Position numbers and translations under genes: made by a program. A model generated the notes under the pieces. That model was not told the origin of the DNA and ran no database searches. It saw nothing but the letters and a program-made list of their open reading frames with translations. Positions 27,888 through 33,642 of a stretch of 33,642 nucleotides of DNA are shown one piece after another. The stretch is from Eubacteriales bacterium (GTDB taxonomy: Bacteria; Bacillota; Clostridia; Oscillospirales; JAAYXM01), in NCBI GenBank assembly GCA_045629985.1, contig JAZQSI010000196.1, positions 1 to 33,642 on the forward strand, read 5' to 3'. How positions within the stretch are numbered: position 1 is the stretch's first letter; every line of letters begins with the position of its first letter.

Positions 27888-28490
27888 TTATTTTTTCGTC
27901 TTGATTCTCGACCATAGGACGATTATAATCTGCCCCGGGATACCGAGGAGAATAAGGAACCGGACGGAAACGCCCGCAAAAACCAGAAGCGAAACAAATA
28001 TAGAGACGAGCGTTGACCACATAAGAAGAGAGATTATCAAGAAGTTCATCTTCTTTGCAAACCAATGCGCGTTGAAAACGAGCCACACTATGAACGAAAC
28101 GGGAAGCGCATACATAAACACAAGCCAGTGGTGAAGCGCCGCATACTCGCGGAAAACATCACCGACAACAAAAACGGCAAGCGCAATAAGCCACACAAGC
28201 GTAATTGACATTCCCGTGATGAAGACGTGGTTTTTCATCTTTATGCGCACGCTCTCGCCAAATTTTTTCTTTTTCGGATGTTCTTCTTCAAGAAGAAAGT
28301 CAACCGTGACGGAAAAAATATCCGCGATTGCTTTGAGAACAACTATATCGGGCACGGACTCTCCGCGCTCCCATTTCGACACGGCTTTATCCGAATAGTT
28401 GAGACGTTCCGCAAGCTCAAACTGCGTCATCTGCGCCTCGCGCCGAAGCTCTGCTATATTTTTCGCAATTATAGTCTTTAACTCTGCCAT
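27888..28490 (-). CDS. XRE-family HTH protein with C-terminal transmembrane helices
   Basis: NIAELRREAQMTQFELAERLNYSDKAVSKWERGESVPD plus about four hydrophobic segments. Start moved to ATG 28490 after RBS GAAAGGA. Confidence 0.88.
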   Translation of the reverse strand: MAELKTIIAKNIAELRREAQMTQFELAERLNYSDKAVSKWERGESVPDIVVLKAIADIFSVTVDFLLEEEHPKKKKFGESVRIKMKNHVFITGMSITLVWLIALAVFVVGDVFREYAALHHWLVFMYALPVSFIVWLVFNAHWFAKKMNFLIISLLMWSTLVSIFVSLLVFAGVSVRFLILLGIPGQIIIVLWSRIKTKK

Positions 28491-28721
28491 AACTGTCCTT
28501 TCATATGTAAAAATTGGATTTTCTTCTCTATATGCGCTATTATAGCATAAAATCTTTGTCAAAACAATGTATTTTTTGTTAATTCTCCCTCGGGTAGAGT
28601 AGATTTTCTCACGCTCTACCGCGCCGCTTTTCGGTGAAGAATTCTATTTATTATCAGTAGGTTGAAACTAATTCTTTTTGTGGTAGAATAATATTATAAA
28701 AATCACGGAGGTTTTTTACCA

Positions 28722-29585
28722 ATGAACGAATACGTTATTTACACCGATACCGCTTGCGATATTTCAAGCGAGATTCTCGAAAGCTGGGGCGTGAAGTATG
28801 CTTCTCTTTCTTTCCAGTTTTCAAACGATGAAACGGTTTATAAAAACAGCATGATTCCCACGGGCGAAATCTACTCCAGAATGCGTGCAGGCGAAACAGG
28901 AAAGACTTCTGCTATAAATATGGAAGAGTTCAAGGACGTTTTCCGTCCCGAGCTTGCGGCAGGGCGCGATGTTTTGTATCTCGCGTTCTCGTCAGGTCTT
29001 TCAAACACATACAACGCGGCGCGCCTTGCTGCCGAGGAGCTTCTCGAAGAGTTCCCGAAAAACCGCGTTATCGCAATCGACACACTCTGCGCATCCGCAG
29101 GCGAGGGTCTTATCGTCCACCTCGCAGCCGAGAAAAAGGCTTCGGGTGCTCCGATAGAAGAGGTTGCACGCTATGTTATGAATATAATCCCGAACCTCTG
29201 CCACTGGTTCACGGTTGATGACCTTAAGTACCTCAAGGCAGGAGGACGCGTCAGCGCGGCTACGGCGCTTCTCGGCGGTATGCTCAATATCAAGCCCGTT
29301 CTCCACGTTGACGACGAGGGTCACCTCATCAGCATGTCGAAGGCGCGCGGAAGAAAGGCGTCTCTGGAGGCACTTATTTCAAAGTACGACGAGCTTGCTC
29401 TCGATAAGGCAGGGGAAATTTTCATCAGCCAGGCGGATTGCCTCGATGATGCAAACTATCTCAAAAAGGAATACACCGAGCGTTTCGGCGCAAACGTTTC
29501 GATAATCGCGGACATCGGACCCGTTATCGGTCTCCATTCAGGTCCGGGAACGATCGCCGTCTTCTTCCTCGGAAAGAACAGATAA
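28722..29585 (+). CDS. DegV-family fatty acid-binding protein
   Basis: IYTDTACD, KTSA, FSSGLSNTY, LKYLKAGGRVS, NIKPVL, IGLHSGPGT. Confidence 0.95.
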   Translation: MNEYVIYTDTACDISSEILESWGVKYASLSFQFSNDETVYKNSMIPTGEIYSRMRAGETGKTSAINMEEFKDVFRPELAAGRDVLYLAFSSGLSNTYNAARLAAEELLEEFPKNRVIAIDTLCASAGEGLIVHLAAEKKASGAPIEEVARYVMNIIPNLCHWFTVDDLKYLKAGGRVSAATALLGGMLNIKPVLHVDDEGHLISMSKARGRKASLEALISKYDELALDKAGEIFISQADCLDDANYLKKEYTERFGANVSIIADIGPVIGLHSGPGTIAVFFLGKNR

Positions 29586-29594
29586 GAAATATAC

Positions 29595-29637
29595 AAACAG
29601 CTCTGCAAGAGATTCTTGCAGAGCTGTTTTCTTTTTT
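29595..29637. terminator. Bidirectional terminator between degV and the repressor gene
   Basis: AAACAGCTCTGCAAGA/TCTTGCAGAGCTGTTT perfect stem. Confidence 0.85.
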
Positions 29638-30226
29638 AGAACCTTGCTCGGAGCTCGCAGACACGGCCAAGCACTTCTATCTTCGTTTGCGCGAGCTCTT
29701 CTTCCGAGAAAAACATCGGCGCATACTGCGGATTCAATGACACGAGGCTGATCCCCTCTTTATAGCGGTAAAACCGCTTGCAGGTTGCCTCTTCCTGACC
29801 TACGAGCACGATTGCAATCTCGCCGTTTTCAACACATGGCTGACGACGGACGATTACAATATCGCCGTCCTTCATTCTCGGCTCCATGCTCTCACCGTTT
29901 ATGCGAAGAGCGAAAAACTCACCCGTTCTTGAAACCTCAGGTGAAATCTCCTCATAGCCTATAACGTCCTCCGTGGCACTGCGCGGCGGCCCTGCCGCAA
30001 CACGCCCAAGAACCGGTACCTTTGTAATCGCTTCTTGTTCACCGCAAAGAACATCCACGCCCACTCCGAAAAAGTCGGCTATTCTGATAAGCATTTCATA
30101 CCCGGGGTTATTCTTTCCGCTTTCCCACATCGCAACGGTCGATTGGCGCACTCCGAGGCTTCTCGCGAGGGAAGTCTGCGAAAGTCCTCCCTCAAGTCTT
30201 AAGCGCTTAATTTCTCTGGCTATCAC
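29636..30226 (-). CDS. CI/LexA-like repressor: XRE HTH + S24 autopeptidase
   Basis: LSQTSLARSLGVRQSTVAMWESG HTH; VPVLGRVAAG (Ala-Gly cleavage site); GESMEP (Ser); ATCKR (Lys). Start moved to GTG 30226 by spacing from RBS AAGGAG. Confidence 0.92.
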   Translation of the reverse strand: MIAREIKRLRLEGGLSQTSLARSLGVRQSTVAMWESGKNNPGYEMLIRIADFFGVGVDVLCGEQEAITKVPVLGRVAAGPPRSATEDVIGYEEISPEVSRTGEFFALRINGESMEPRMKDGDIVIVRRQPCVENGEIAIVLVGQEEATCKRFYRYKEGISLVSLNPQYAPMFFSEEELAQTKIEVLGRVCELRARF

Positions 30227-30265
30227 AACCGCCACGCTCCTTGTTTACAAATTTATCTGTATTTG

Positions 30266-30380
30266 AGTATATCATTTAATATGTTAATTTTCAAGCGTTT
30301 TAAATTTTTTGTCGAAAAAAGAAATATTAATCTTGTTGACAGAAAATCGATTCGGTGATAATATATCATTACAAATGATA
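30266..30380. promoter_or_regulatory. Back-to-back promoters with 17-bp palindromic operators
   Basis: Leftward TTGAAA-17-TATACT (30294-30266); rightward TTGACA-17-TAATAT (30336-30364); TATCA-N7-TGATA-like sites at 30270, 30325 and 30364. Confidence 0.7.
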
Positions 30381-30434
30381 ACTTGACACGTTACGACAAC
30401 AATGAACTCAATCTTTAAGGAGGCGACAAATTGT

Positions 30435-30644
30435 ATGAACTATCCGGGCATTTTGCCGCGGGCGGTGTGCGGCAGTCCGGATTTTCAGACTCTGCCTGAG
30501 TACTTCTGCCCTGTATGCGGTGCGCAGCTTGACGGGGGAGACCGACTCGCAGAGAACAAGGACGGGGATACGGTAGGGTGCGACTACTGTATTCGGTATT
30601 ACGAAATATGGGAGACAAACAGCAATGATAATTACAGACATTGA
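30435..30644 (+). CDS. Small Zn-ribbon protein, phage-early-gene-like
   Basis: CPVCG...VGCDYC pair of CxxC motifs; RBS AAGGAGG at 30417-30423. Confidence 0.7.
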   Translation: MNYPGILPRAVCGSPDFQTLPEYFCPVCGAQLDGGDRLAENKDGDTVGCDYCIRYYEIWETNSNDNYRH

Positions 30645-30975
30645 AAGAGAGATTAATGACATTCTCGGCATCAGACCCGAGGATAAACCGCCGGCAACCC
30701 CACAGCGACGTGGAAGACCGCCGCTTGAAAAACAACCCATCTGGTCGCTCAACTTCTATGAGCCGACGAAAAACATTACATATGCAGTTATTTCCATGTG
30801 CATCAAGGAAGACTTCGCCCAAAGCCTCGACGAGCTCGCAACGCGGGTTTCGCGATGTAAGGAGCGCCCGAAGAACGAGTGTCTCAAAGTTCTCCGCGAG
30901 CTTCGCGAATGCGGTAAGCTGGGGTATTACGACGATTATACACTGCGTTTTCACACCTGGAAAGGTAGGTTCTGA
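30625..30975 (+). CDS. Hypothetical protein with AT-hook-like RRGRPP and possible C-terminal winged helix
   Basis: RBS GGGAG; overlaps the upstream gene and ends 4 nt before the next start. Confidence 0.6.
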   Translation: MIITDIEREINDILGIRPEDKPPATPQRRGRPPLEKQPIWSLNFYEPTKNITYAVISMCIKEDFAQSLDELATRVSRCKERPKNECLKVLRELRECGKLGYYDDYTLRFHTWKGRF

Positions 30976-30979
30976 GGTT

Positions 30980-31399
30980 ATGGACTGGAGGCTATGTGCC
31001 GAAGACGACCTTCGGCGATACAAACAAATGAAAATCGGCATCCTCAACTCAAAAGACCGCCTTCGCCTTATCTCCGAGACTATCCGCTCACCAAAGGCGA
31101 GCTTTTCCAAGCACAGTAAGAGAATGGATTCTGACCTCATAAACGCTATGGTTGAGAAGGAGCGTCTTGCAAATAACATAAATTCCGCAGAGAGGCTTCT
31201 CGCTATCATTGATCGGGGGCTTGACTCTTTGACGGATGAGGAAAGGCAGCTTCTTGAGAAGTTTTATATGTCAAATTCCCCCTCAAAAATGCGGCATCTT
31301 TCCGAAGAGTTCGGTTATGATCCGCGCACGCTTTACCGCATGCGCGATCGCGCACTTGCAAATTTCACTATCGCTATGTACGGCCTTGAGCTGTCGTAG
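30980..31399 (+). CDS. ArpU/RinA-like phage transcriptional activator
   Basis: N-terminal DLRRYKQM helix, coiled coil, then sigma-region-4-like IDRGLDSLTDEERQLLEKFY...LSEEFGYDPRTLYRMRDRALANF; 139 aa from ATG 30980. Confidence 0.78.
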   Translation: MDWRLCAEDDLRRYKQMKIGILNSKDRLRLISETIRSPKASFSKHSKRMDSDLINAMVEKERLANNINSAERLLAIIDRGLDSLTDEERQLLEKFYMSNSPSKMRHLSEEFGYDPRTLYRMRDRALANFTIAMYGLELS

Positions 31400-31443
31400 A
31401 TATAATATTTCTCCTTTATTTTTTCAACTTTTTTGCTAAAGGG

Positions 31444-31474
31444 AAAAGGCGAAGCATTGTGCTTCGCCTTTTTC
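31444..31474. terminator. Bidirectional terminator closing the phage-like module
   Basis: AAAAGGCGAAGCA/TGCTTCGCCTTTT stem between convergent genes. Confidence 0.85.
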
Positions 31475-31476
31475 TC

Positions 31477-33642
31477 TTATTTGCTGTAGATTACGCCATC
31501 CTTAAAGATTGCATACGCCTTCGGGATAAGCCCCGTATCGTATGTCATCGTAAACGATGTTGCATCAGTCTTCATCGCGTATTTGTGCGTTGCATCCTCA
31601 ACGCCCTCGCCATCAAATATAAAGCCTTTCTCAAGTGCATTTTCGCAACCGATAAACTCTGCTACCGTTGCGTTGTCGCCGAGAGCTGAAACGATGATTT
31701 TGCATACACGTTCAGCGGCTGTCGGTAAAAATCCTGCATAAACCGCCGTGACAGTCGTACTCGTTGCCGCATTGAAGGTGTATTCGCGGCTTGTGCTTAC
31801 AATTTCACCGTTCTTCTTCCAACCAACGAAGATTTTATATCCGCCGCCGTTCTGACGGTACGGAGCCGTGAGGGTAACAACATCGCCGAAGACATATTCT
31901 CCTGCGCCCGTTATGCCTTCACTTCCCTCTGCGGTAATAACGACGTTCTTGTTTGTAGCGACTTCTTCCTCATCGTATGCCGCAGTAAACATCATTATTG
32001 TGTTTACCGCGATAATTTCGTCATCGGGAGTGAATGTCGCAGGCTCTTCGATGCCGTTTATGTATCCTACCCAACCGATAGACTCTCCGACACCTGTAAG
32101 CGACGGAAGTTCAGGGATATCTATCACGTCGCCCTTTTTGTAGAGCTTTCGTGAAACGAGCTCACGGTTTGCATTGTAGAACTCAACAACAGAATCTGCA
32201 GACTCGTTGTATGAATAGAATGCAGAGATAAAGGTGTTTCCTTTCGGCGCCTTGAAGCTGAATTCCGTCTCTGTGGAAACGGGCATCATCATTCTGCCAA
32301 GTCCTATTCCCCAGTAGCGGAAGGTGTATCCATCAATCTCGGGAGCTTCAACCGTGCAGATATCTCCCGCTTTTTCAACGTGTGTCTTCTCAATAACGCG
32401 CTCAAGGAGTTCTTTGTCTTCGGTATGCTTATCGCTTGTTTCGCGAGCAAGCACCGTAACGGTCGCCGAAGTGTCCTGGACCATTGAAATCGTCGGGTTT
32501 TCAGGAGTAAATGTTCTTTCCTGCTCTTTCAGGAGTGTTTCATCAGTCTTTGAAACAACCGCAGGACCTGTCGCCGTAAGCGTGAGTGACCTTATGTCAA
32601 CATCCCATCTGCCGACATCGGGTGTTGTTGTACTGTCGGTCTTGAAGCTTTCGAAGATGAAGTAATATTCTCCTGCCGTATATGCGGTGAACTTACCTGT
32701 CTTTAAATTCTCATCCCACTTGCCGACTGCAATCTGATACGGCTCTCTCTCCGCATACGTCTGCGGAAGCCTCTTTGTAGCCGGGAGCAGATATGCCGCA
32801 AAGCCTACGTCATTGCCGTTTTTCATTGTATCAATCGAGAAGTCATACTGCGCCGCTGTCGGAATATCAATCTTGAGTATCGTGCACTCATTTCCCTTTC
32901 CGAGGTCGCGGAGACCGTTTGCCTTGATCTGGTTGTGCATTCCGCCGCTGCGTGCATATGTCTGAGCGGAGTCAAGGTTGCCTGTTCGGGCAATAAACTG
33001 CCACTTATCCGTTCTGGCGAGGTTTAAGTAGTCGTAATTTCTCTCAAACACGCCGTCATATCCAAAGTAAAGATACGGGTTTATTGTGCTTCGGAGCCAC
33101 AAAACGTGTCCGCGCTCTGCATCCGAAAGGCTCTTTGCCGTCCACGGGATGTATTTATCGCGTGCCTTTGCCTCCGCGCTCTGGTCAGACCACGTATTGA
33201 GCGGCTTTTGGAAGTTGGCAGGAGGCTCCTCCCCGATTGCCGCATAGTAGGCGTTGATGTTCTGCACCGTGTCGCCGAAGTACCAGGTCGGAGTGTCGGA
33301 GCCGTTTTCATAGACCTTGTTTGCCGAGTTGAATGACTCTGCGCCGAGGGCGTACTTTACCTTTCCGTCGTCTCCGAGCGCATCGGGGTTGTAGGGGTCT
33401 GTGTCTATAATCTCAACGGGGTCGAGGTGGAAGGACTGCGGCTGGAGATAAACCTGACCCATATTCTGCGAGCCCGTCTTTGCGCCATGTTCTACGGGAA
33501 CGAATGCAAGATAATGCGTTCCTGCCGTGAGGTCGCAGTCTGCAAACTTCTGCAAACCGCCGACAGATGAGTCGTATGCGCCTATACGGTCATCAAGCGA
33601 AAGCTTTGCTCTTATGTTCGCTGCCGCAAGCGTCTTATTCGC
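31477..33642 (-). CDS. C-terminal part of a second large surface protein (5'-partial), paralogous module plus InlB-B/Flg_new-like repeats
   Basis: Frame is open from the window edge (ANKTLAAANIRAKLSLDDRIGAYDSSVGGLQKF...). Contains LNLARTDKWQF, AGTHYLAF, AGEYYFIF, then APEIDGYTFRYW and FVGWKKNGEIVST...TVTAVY. Confidence 0.82.
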   Translation of the reverse strand, partial: ANKTLAAANIRAKLSLDDRIGAYDSSVGGLQKFADCDLTAGTHYLAFVPVEHGAKTGSQNMGQVYLQPQSFHLDPVEIIDTDPYNPDALGDDGKVKYALGAESFNSANKVYENGSDTPTWYFGDTVQNINAYYAAIGEEPPANFQKPLNTWSDQSAEAKARDKYIPWTAKSLSDAERGHVLWLRSTINPYLYFGYDGVFERNYDYLNLARTDKWQFIARTGNLDSAQTYARSGGMHNQIKANGLRDLGKGNECTILKIDIPTAAQYDFSIDTMKNGNDVGFAAYLLPATKRLPQTYAEREPYQIAVGKWDENLKTGKFTAYTAGEYYFIFESFKTDSTTTPDVGRWDVDIRSLTLTATGPAVVSKTDETLLKEQERTFTPENPTISMVQDTSATVTVLARETSDKHTEDKELLERVIEKTHVEKAGDICTVEAPEIDGYTFRYWGIGLGRMMMPVSTETEFSFKAPKGNTFISAFYSYNESADSVVEFYNANRELVSRKLYKKGDVIDIPELPSLTGVGESIGWVGYINGIEEPATFTPDDEIIAVNTIMMFTAAYDEEEVATNKNVVITAEGSEGITGAGEYVFGDVVTLTAPYRQNGGGYKIFVGWKKNGEIVSTSREYTFNAATSTTVTAVYAGFLPTAAERVCKIIVSALGDNATVAEFIGCENALEKGFIFDGEGVEDATHKYAMKTDATSFTMTYDTGLIPKAYAIFKDGVIYSK

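Follow-up and report, generated by a model that had tools for sequence, protein, structure and literature searches.

A stand-alone phage-type repressor-activator cassette as a candidate DNA-damage switch in a LexA-less clade of Oscillospirales

What does a phage-type genetic switch do in a bacterial chromosome when no phage accompanies it? The question is raised by a cassette at positions 29636-31399 of a 33,642-nucleotide stretch of DNA (the window), which is the whole of contig C196 of a metagenome-assembled genome (MAG) of a Eubacteriales bacterium (GCA_045629985.1; 219 contigs, 1.74 Mb, 85% complete). The initial annotation of the window had described here an intact CI-like autocleavable repressor, divergent promoters and three coupled open reading frames (ORFs), the last of them for an activator of the RinA/ArpU type, and all of these were recovered. 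It had not foreseen that the repressor might be standing in for a missing LexA. We lean towards the view that the cassette serves a clade lacking LexA, formed by the host genus and two sister genera, as its master switch for DNA damage; in this clade the repressor would control dinB and the three-gene operon, and the RinA-like protein the genes of a phage-derived particle.

The comparisons were made within the genus to which the window belongs (g1; its own genome and those of 18 other species, hence 19) and with sister genera of the same family (g2 to g7). The DNA-binding domain of LexA (PF01726) is found in none of the 19 g1 genomes, nor in the single g3 and the single g5 genome, and these 21 genomes constitute the set without LexA used in comparisons with the cassette. 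The domain is present in g2 (1 of 1), g4 (5 of 5), g6 (2 of 2) and g7 (3 of 3). The distribution of the cassette mirrors that of LexA: g1, g3 and g5 possess it, and the LexA-bearing g2, g4, g6 and g7 do not. The repressor differs from a canonical LexA in that PF01726 is missing, its N-terminus is of the HTH_3 type, and its score against TIGR00498 is 87 bits (cut-off 110.95), with only residues 56-192 aligned. It is the only full-length S24 match in its own genome, as are its counterparts in all five relatives of 95-99% completeness.

The repressor gene and the operon diverge from an intergenic region that contains two palindromes. The leftward promoter of the repressor gene (30266..30294, minus strand; TTGAAA-17-TATACT, sigma-70-like, 10/12, with TG) encloses the imperfect palindrome O2 (ATCATTTAATATGTT; 30271..30285), and the perfect 6-3-6 palindrome O1 (ATCATTACAAATGAT; 30365..30379) adjoins the -10 element of the rightward promoter of the operon (30336..30364, plus strand; TTGACA-17-TAATAT, sigma-70-like, 10/12, with TG). 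In 18 aligned intergenic regions both sites are kept in place, O1 as ATCATT-N3-AATGAT at the rightward -10 and O2 as an imperfect copy, together with the rightward promoter and the leftward -35 element (TTTTCAAG). The exact palindrome occurs twice in the window's own genome, against 0.19 occurrences expected, and the second copy lies on contig C126, 24 bp before the Y-family polymerase gene dinB and just behind the dinB -10. Across the 19 g1 genomes there are 37 exact sites, distributed over 18 genomes, compared with one for the reversed control; 17 are at cassettes, seven at dinB, one at another Y-family polymerase gene, four at collagen-repeat, tail-fibre-like genes, two beside tsaE and six elsewhere.

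The comparison of dinB promoters across the family is the strongest single result. Seven of the 13 usable g1 promoters carry the operator at -34 to -38, and in the 11 LexA-bearing genomes the same position is the place of the LexA box GAAC-N4-GTTC (exact in four, with one mismatch in three and with two mismatches in two). The LexA box was seen only in the LexA-bearing sister genera, and not at the cassette or dinB promoters of g1. The suggestion in the initial annotation that the cassette acts in trans on host genes thereby gains support, and the repressor is very probably the substitute for LexA in this clade.

The direct operator regulon differs between subclades. In four genomes (G009, G001, G002 and G018; L064, L065, L069 and L073) an exact operator stands right after the -10 of stand-alone collagen-repeat, tail-fibre-like genes of 221-260 aa in host-gene surroundings; that of G001 faces a second XRE-S24 paralog of 210 aa, and the window's own genome has one weak C-terminal relative of these genes, inside the prophage on contig C194. 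A repeated module was also noted, in which the end of an ORF is followed by a terminator hairpin, an exact operator and, about 60 nt later, a TTTACA-17-TGTAATAAAAT promoter; it is found beside tsaE (G004 and G016) and in two other places (L072:1636, L077:2546, L078:2284 and L070:2052).

The repressor gene (29636..30235, minus strand) encodes 199 aa, with an XRE-type helix-turn-helix (HTH) domain (HTH_3, 4.3e-17) and a peptidase S24 domain (Pfam Peptidase_S24, 2.9e-30), and matches phrog_4 at 1.2e-45. The S24 domain is complete (profile positions 1-116 of 116 in PF00717), and the protein has the cleavage site Ala81-Gly82 and the catalytic residues Ser116 and Lys153. When 18 repressor orthologs were inspected by eye, all were seen to keep (A/Q)-A-G or Q-A-G, G-x-S-M-E-P-R and C-K-(K/R)-F.

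The first gene of the operon encodes a Zn-ribbon protein of 69 aa (CPVCG...CxYC), for which 15 orthologs show 27 invariant columns. The initial annotation had the gene in its proper place with a start at 30402; the likely start is the ATG at 30435, with AAGGAGG as ribosome-binding site 11 nt upstream, giving 30435..30644 on the plus strand. The second gene (30625..30975, plus strand) overlaps the first by 20 nt and encodes a predicted DNA-binding protein of 116 aa that matches nothing in Pfam, PHROG or NCBIfam. Its AlphaFold model consists of an N-terminal helix, a disordered linker with an AT-hook, the RGR motif of which is invariant, and a winged helix (H-H-H-beta-beta; pLDDT confidence ~90 over residues 51-111). 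The third gene (30980..31399, plus strand) encodes the predicted RinA/ArpU-like activator of 139 aa, which matches phrog_248 (2.8e-12) and phrog_36 (3.5e-12), values near 1e-12 for which PHROG has no curated cut-off. Its model combines a long helical hairpin with an HTH resembling sigma region 4 (pLDDT 88), and Foldseek returned local matches to sigma region 4 at a probability of 0.99 and E values of 0.3-1.5. Against the PDB, Foldseek gave nothing at E<=0.001 for either the 116-aa or the 139-aa model, with weak local likeness to winged-helix regulators and sigma region 4, and a sequence search of the PDB with the RinA-like profile gave nothing below E 0.2. Prediction of a complex of the three operon proteins, with the Zn-ribbon protein as partner, scored 0.00, which speaks neither for nor against an association.

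The 3' half of the Zn-ribbon gene (30510..30630, plus strand) has the highest DNA conservation of the cassette (0.86-0.90), and its synonymous sites are nearly frozen: the synonymous rate (dS) among the 15 orthologs is 0.08-0.45 in this stretch, compared with 1-2.5 in the three neighbouring genes. Codon-wise inspection and RNAalifold placed an 11-bp hairpin here (30566-30576 / 30584-30594), for which there were no compensatory changes and no Rfam family. The stretch has no second copy in its own genome and is therefore not a dispersed binding site.

Two terminators, each with a 16-bp stem and a T run, enclose the cassette. Both had been taken as bidirectional; this applies to the one common to degV and the repressor gene (29595..29629), which was called on both strands, whereas the operon terminator (31441..31475) was called on the plus strand only. 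Rfam had no match to the cassette at gathering score, the best being rli61 on the terminator (33.4 vs 50 bits). In agreement with the initial annotation, no integrase, replication, terminase, structural or lysis gene was found in or beside the cassette, and Pfam identifies the neighbours as DegV (1.4e-68) and a surface protein that exceeds 721 aa and contains an InlB B-repeat. The RinA-like gene is thus followed by a terminator and a convergent host gene, and does not stand directly upstream of terS/terL as its phage relatives do.

Is the cassette maintained, or is it left over from a lost phage? The RinA-like gene is present in 17 of the 18 other g1 species genomes, the one miss being a genome of 64% completeness, and in the g3 and g5 genomes (1 of 1 each). 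All four genes are intact and adjacent in the 20 loci that were fetched, contig ends excepted, and the repressor orthologs are 60-81% identical across 17 loci. The initial annotation had looked to conservation across the genus and to a ratio of nonsynonymous to synonymous rates (dN/dS) below 1; calculated for each gene from 12 species pairs with unsaturated dS, the ratio is 0.06-0.17 for the repressor, 0.00-0.38 for the Zn-ribbon protein, 0.07-0.29 for the AT-hook protein and 0.08-0.32 for the RinA-like protein. The identity to relatives declines in the same species order for the repressor, DinB and the particle capsid described below.

The flank formed by hrcA, an HTH-membrane gene and degV is common to the nearest relatives only; in others the cassette is flanked by genes for PrmA, malic enzyme, Fe-S subunits or H+-PPase. 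(The HTH-membrane gene, at 27888-28562 on the minus strand between hrcA and degV, encodes an XRE-HTH protein of 224 aa with a C-terminal membrane part, which shows 66-76% identity to its counterparts in the five nearest relatives.) Housekeeping genes flank the cassette in all 13 relatives inspected, with no phage genes, integrase or gene debris beside it. DNA of the window is present in bovine and sheep gut metagenomes of 14 studies, and contigs from other metagenome studies join degV, the cassette and the surface-protein gene; one of them covers 29484-32400 with 45 differences. A full prophage, an empty site or signs of decay in relatives, which the initial annotation had named as the marks of a recent deletion, appeared neither in the 13 flanks nor at the junctions of the bridging contigs, where no prophage and no empty site was found. 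The cassette is almost certainly a conserved host module under selection.

The components have phage relatives to different degrees. Repressors in 611 phage records share 33-38% identity with that of the cassette. For the RinA-like protein, relatives of 29-37% identity come from 16 IMG/VR loci, in which neither the Zn-ribbon nor the winged-helix/AT-hook partner gene was found. The winged-helix/AT-hook family is rare (70 representatives at E<=1e-3 among 1.84 billion proteins); its gene occurs in 6 of the 201 genomes of the order, all of them g1 or g5, and no relative was found in IMG/VR. The nearest database relatives of the RinA-like and capsid proteins are from MAGs labelled 'Oscillospiraceae bacterium'. 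A second stand-alone switch was observed in G055, a LexA-containing genome of another family of the order (L158:7980-10586, between hemN and hrcA); there an XRE-S24 repressor (269 aa) faces a cro-like HTH gene (77 aa), a gp3/TerS-like ORF and a RinA-like gene (147 aa, 37% identical), with no further phage genes nearby.

Which genes, then, might a solitary late-gene activator serve? The initial annotation had suggested a search for an orphan particle locus without regulators, and two syntenic candidates with a common promoter type were indeed located in g1. With the capsid of a small mobile element on the window's own contig C50 and the large terminase subunit (TerL) of a prophage as queries, homologs were obtained in 19 of 19 g1 genomes, and their follow-up led to two chromosomal loci, the genes of which were named according to PHROG. 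Locus 1, behind tRNA genes and a conserved host gene, was recorded 17 times, g3 and g5 included, and is on contigs C41 and C152 in the window's own genome; it comprises a scaffold-like gene (phrog_14606), the major head gene (phrog_422), a gene for a 135-aa protein, a holin gene (phrog_1129) and one for a lysin-like protein of 264 aa (NAGPA/SH3). Locus 2, between ychF and tsaE-tsaB, was recorded 11 times, again including g3 and g5, and is on contig C55; it comprises genes for an M23 peptidase, a 100-aa protein regarded as like the small terminase subunit (TerS) by position only, TerL, a structural protein of 706 aa (phrog_3287), proteins of 271 aa and 65 aa, and the portal (phrog_156). A related copy with an integrase is found on contig C80 of the window's own genome.

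The capsid gene is present in all 19 g1 genomes, 71-89% identical to the window's own copy (77-78% in g3 and g5), and the portal gene in the window's own genome and 16 of the 18 others. Their dN/dS ratios are 0.07-0.12 (capsid) and 0.06-0.10 (portal). Searches of the 17 and 11 loci by tblastn with Rep, RinA2 and TerS of the C50 element, and of G017 with PHROGs, detected no Rep, integrase or RinA-like gene. The particle genes are thus inherited vertically, under purifying selection and between fixed flanks, and their loci are devoid of replication, integration and regulatory genes; both are traits by which a gene transfer agent (GTA) is recognized. We put the chances about even that the product would be a GTA-like DNA-packaging particle and not some other particle of phage origin.

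Two further candidates for the target, the C194 prophage and the C50 element, were set aside as ordinary mobile elements with regulators or repeat words of their own. The C194 prophage (L080 and L081) encodes an integrase, an endolysin, an ORF of 3526 aa, an internal virion protein, portal, TerL, TerS and a RuvC-like resolvase. The small mobile element of C50 (L059) and of G002:C20 (L170) encodes Rep, a RinA-like protein, TerS, scaffold, capsid and structural proteins of 709 aa and 440 aa; its late promoter word is TGAGACA, and its RinA-like gene is preceded by another tandem repeat (ATGTTGA x2).

The particle loci have a characteristic promoter, composed of two to six direct repeats of an 11-bp unit (AAgTTGkCAaa), a spacer of about 20 nt and an extended -10 (TGnTATAAT). 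It is located upstream of the scaffold gene in 15 of 16 locus-1 regions and upstream of the TerS-like gene in 10 of 11 locus-2 regions. The repeat word varies by species, yet is identical at both loci within a genome: TTGTCA in G017, G004, G006, G016 and G013, TTGGCAGAAA x4-6 in G001, G009, G011 and G012, TTGGCAC in G008 and G002, and TTGGGA in G020. A pattern scan gave 56 such TTGKCA promoters in 18 of the 19 g1 genomes, compared with none for the reversed pattern. Three are in the window's own genome, on C41 (locus 1), at the C80 copy and on C204 (1778-1821, minus strand), the last some 240 bp before dnaA and not followed by any ORF. G006 likewise has a particle-type promoter 2.5 kb upstream of dnaA, followed by small genes (L233, G006:C20). 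Behind most TTGKCA promoters, a hairpin resembling a terminator lies no more than about 60 nt away. The locus-1 scaffold gene is preceded by a leader of some 330 nt, which in most of the 16 species compared (for example at C41:11229-11465 in the window's own genome) contains a conserved stem-loop with the loop ...CGCTTTAGCGCGCAAAGAC...

Elsewhere in the relatives, TTGKCA promoters head genes for an Amidase_2 lysin, fibre-like genes, a family of proteins of 250-570 aa and one small gene with a ribonuclease domain. The members of the 250-570-aa family (L230, L231, L232, L234, L236, L238, L239, L240, L242, L076 and L176:7580-9218) have a common N-terminal motif (YYYDFGTG..K or ..DPF..GFN..) and variable C-termini, with small genes (DUF7674, DUF5050 or no family) downstream; the arrangement looks like polymorphic toxin/immunity pairs or particle cargo. 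In L241, the first gene behind the particle-type promoter encodes the ribonuclease-domain protein, of 107 aa.

Two observations connect these promoters with the RinA-like protein. In seven of seven related mobile elements or phage contigs (C50, G002:C20, two g4 elements, the G009 prophage and two IMG/VR contigs), two or three repeats with 11-bp spacing and a TATAAT-like -10 lie directly behind the element's own RinA-like gene and before the terminase, each element having its own word (TGAGACA, GTGGAA, GCGGAA), unlike the chromosomal TTGKCA. In addition, the cassette gene is the only full-length phrog_36 match in G017, G004 and G016 (96-99% complete). As a genome-wide probe phrog_36 is unspecific, matching all 14 control genomes through sigma region 4, and RinA-like counts therefore took only matches over most of the model. 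Because of the layout in the seven elements and the sole match in the three genomes, we infer that the cassette activator would read the TTGKCA repeats. By eye, all TTGTCA genomes keep R-(D/E)-R-A-L in the predicted recognition helix and most TTGGCA genomes differ at that arginine, a pattern confounded by shared ancestry. The cassette proteins probably drive the TTGKCA promoters.

The following course of events can be proposed. At rest, the repressor would recognize ATCATT-N3-AATGAT and occupy O1 and O2; as O1 adjoins the rightward -10 and O2 lies within the repressor's own promoter, it would both silence the three-gene operon and limit its own synthesis. In the window's own species, the operator just behind the dinB -10 would silence the Y-family polymerase as well. 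Upon DNA damage, RecA filaments would provoke self-cleavage of the repressor between Ala81 and Gly82 through the Ser116/Lys153 dyad, and dinB and the operon would be derepressed. In a second tier, the RinA/ArpU-like protein would bind the tandem 11-bp TTGKCA repeats, centred near -41 and -52, at promoters with an extended -10, and switch on the dispersed genes of a domesticated podovirus-like particle, namely both loci and the amidase, fibre-like and cargo-like genes elsewhere. The winged-helix/AT-hook and Zn-ribbon proteins probably assist; they may attach to the A-tracts that separate the repeats, or enable RNA polymerase to read through the terminator-like hairpins found behind nearly all of these promoters.

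Each component of this scheme has a precedent, in co-opted S24 repressors, in RinA-type activators and in multi-locus GTAs with an activator and an anti-terminator. HdiR of lactococci and streptococci is an S24 repressor with a CI/XRE-type N-terminus that acts as SOS regulator where canonical LexA is missing. FddR of Francisella is a phage S24 repressor co-opted as DNA-damage regulator, with binding demonstrated by electrophoretic mobility-shift assay and induction by RNA-seq (PMC13148647). In Francisella, as here, a genus without working LexA has a CI-like S24 repressor throughout, with a palindromic operator in its own promoter; the repressor controls itself and a divergent unit, dinB is included in some species only, and recA is outside its control (PMC13148647). 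The FddR operator is GTG-N11-CAC rather than ATCATT-N3-AATGAT, the phylum is another one, and the divergent gene is of unknown function, whereas the divergent unit here is a three-gene operon with a phage late-gene activator (PMC13148647). A further difference is that the replacement of a LexA box by a new operator at dinB is directly visible here against the sister genera. The non-canonical LexA of Bacteroidetes is likewise an S24 SOS regulator whose N-terminal domain is of the CI/XRE type, and its lineage has no canonical LexA (PMC8565304). It is described as governing a broad canonical SOS regulon, whereas the direct regulon here is tiny and the main output would apparently be the second-tier activator (PMC8565304).

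The RinA/ArpU superfamily comprises activators of the late operons of Gram-positive phages (PMC3152322, PMC3753634). The cassette protein resembles them in its length of about 140 aa, its matches to both phrog_248 and phrog_36 and the C-terminal HTH like sigma region 4 in the model; it differs in that its gene is alone in the chromosome, far from a terminase, scores below the NCBIfam cut-offs and is coupled to Zn-ribbon and winged-helix/AT-hook genes. In PBSX of Bacillus subtilis, the repressor Xre and the sigma-like Xpf drive a defective, SOS-inducible lytic particle that packages DNA. The proposed model shares with PBSX a repressor, a small sigma-like positive factor, a domesticated particle and induction by DNA damage. 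PBSX keeps its regulators within a single contiguous element, in a host that has LexA. In the present case the switch is not linked to the structural genes, which occupy at least two loci, and the only LexA-type protein is the repressor itself.

PBSX has been named GTA-like (PMC12946183). Among GTAs proper, the Caulobacter CcGTA is controlled by RogA and GafYZ (PMC11150451) and RcGTA is a multi-locus GTA (PMC5026251). As these accounts present them, both have features of the proposed model, namely dispersed particle genes, a dedicated activator, tiers of activation and anti-termination, and terminators in or before the cluster; anti-termination in the present case is suggested by the leader hairpins. 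Their proteins and phylum are unrelated, and their input is given as stationary phase or quorum sensing, not an autocleavable repressor. Closest in habitat is a 2026 report that GTA-like packaging is prominent in gut Ruminococcaceae and Oscillospiraceae, with particles and packaged DNA shown experimentally for FpGTA of Faecalibacterium prausnitzii (PMC12946183). FpGTA is, like the system proposed here, podovirus-like, divided into two operons and vertically conserved in gut anaerobes of the Oscillospirales type (PMC12946183). It also has a TerS without obvious DNA-binding domain, TerL, portal, scaffold, capsid, holin and lysin, the genes being split otherwise between the two operons (PMC12946183). 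The passages on FpGTA name no regulator, and 'regulat' occurs twice in the text (PMC12946183).

Several points weigh against a damage switch that commands a particle. Some concern the genome itself: the assembly is fragmented, locus 1 being divided between contigs C41 and C152 and locus 2 breaking off where C55 ends, and the sole RNA run with part of the window covers degV only and not the cassette. Others concern the first tier. Neither six of the 13 g1 genomes nor g3 nor g5 have an operator at dinB, and the dinB link therefore holds for a subclade only. Upstream of recA, neither the operator nor a LexA box is found in 29 of 29 family genomes, LexA-bearing genera included, and recA is therefore of no use as a test. 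(In these 29 genomes, L112-L140, recA follows an upstream gene after a short spacer.) In the window's own genome convincing operators are confined to the cassette and dinB, the other 18 intergenic sites with two mismatches looking like chance; with none at recA either, the direct regulon is therefore tiny. As to the second tier, the RinA-like protein has no Pfam match and is under both NCBIfam cut-offs (TIGR01637 phage_arpU, 33.8 vs 43.1 bits; TIGR01636 phage_rinA, 26.1 vs 31.9 bits), two further RinA-like-sized matches are present in its own genome, on C50 and C137, and sequence does not single out the cassette protein, if any, that would read the TTGKCA repeats. The TTGKCA promoters, with their near-consensus extended -10, might be active constitutively and be regulated at the leader terminators or through some unlinked factor. 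Finally, relatives of the capsid and portal (65-70% identity) occur in the LexA-bearing g4 and g6, at least two of them in complete mobile elements that bring Rep and RinA-like genes of their own, and the co-occurrence of particle genes and cassette is therefore not exclusive.

One rival explanation is a minimal SOS module that comprises, like FddR, the repressor, its divergent unit and dinB, with the operon proteins doing other work and the TTGKCA promoters read by the housekeeping sigma factor or an unlinked regulator. Apart from its own gene, the operon and dinB, the operator firmly connects the repressor with no more than a few accessory genes; the divergent gene in the FddR precedent is of unknown function (PMC13148647); and the TTGKCA promoters have a strong extended -10 and terminator-like hairpins, so that control could lie elsewhere. 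We nevertheless consider this explanation unlikely, given the same promoter layout behind the RinA-like gene in all seven mobile elements, the cassette gene as the sole full-length RinA/ArpU-like match in three near-complete genomes, and, in several species, repressor operators at members of the particle regulon that are fibre-like or cargo-like. The cassette might otherwise be aimed at incoming or resident phages, with premature firing of their late promoters as a defence or help in their induction as cooperation, the structural loci being a separate matter. The genus is full of related elements with RinA-like genes and tandem-repeat late promoters of their own (C50, G002:C20, G009:C36); their words differ from the chromosomal TTGKCA, however, and the cassette is kept where no second RinA-like gene was found, which renders this use quite improbable. 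That the cassette is a functionless remnant of a recently deleted prophage would fit the phage relatives or phage-like folds of all four proteins, but is hardly credible for genes that are intact in 17 of 18 other g1 species and two sister genera, with purifying dN/dS, an order of identities matching that of capsid and DinB, no debris or integrase in the flanks of 13 relatives and the same junctions in contigs of other studies.

The damage switch over dinB and the particle genes thus remains the reading we favour. What is new is the combination of its components, the operator swap visible at dinB and the species-specific promoter word. Literature searches turned up no regulator for GTAs of Gram-positive gut bacteria. 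Within the literature searched, the present model is the first to make the regulation of GTA-like elements testable in Gram-positive gut anaerobes; its handles are a defined operator, a promoter word that changes by species and three small candidate factors. The cassette together with the TTGKCA promoter provides a signature for domesticated particle regulons in MAGs. The dinB promoter offers a clean natural experiment in the displacement of a regulator, with a LexA box in the sister genera and the operator of a captured repressor at the same position in g1, and lends support to the proposal, made for Francisella, that self-contained divergent units are the material from which SOS networks are rebuilt (PMC13148647). 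A fuller picture, which we offer tentatively and consider rather unlikely, is that a clade of rumen bacteria of the Oscillospiraceae type has abandoned LexA and rebuilt its damage response on a captured phage lysis-lysogeny switch, the CI-like repressor guarding dinB and, through the RinA-like activator and its two partners, a multi-locus GTA-like particle whose regulon includes lysins, collagen-like fibres and polymorphic cargo proteins that are alike in an N-terminal motif and variable at the C-terminus, one perhaps with a ribonuclease domain, and that are accompanied by immunity-like small genes. If this were true, DNA damage would lead in these bacteria to altruistic lysis and to the release of particles loaded with DNA, and perhaps with toxins.

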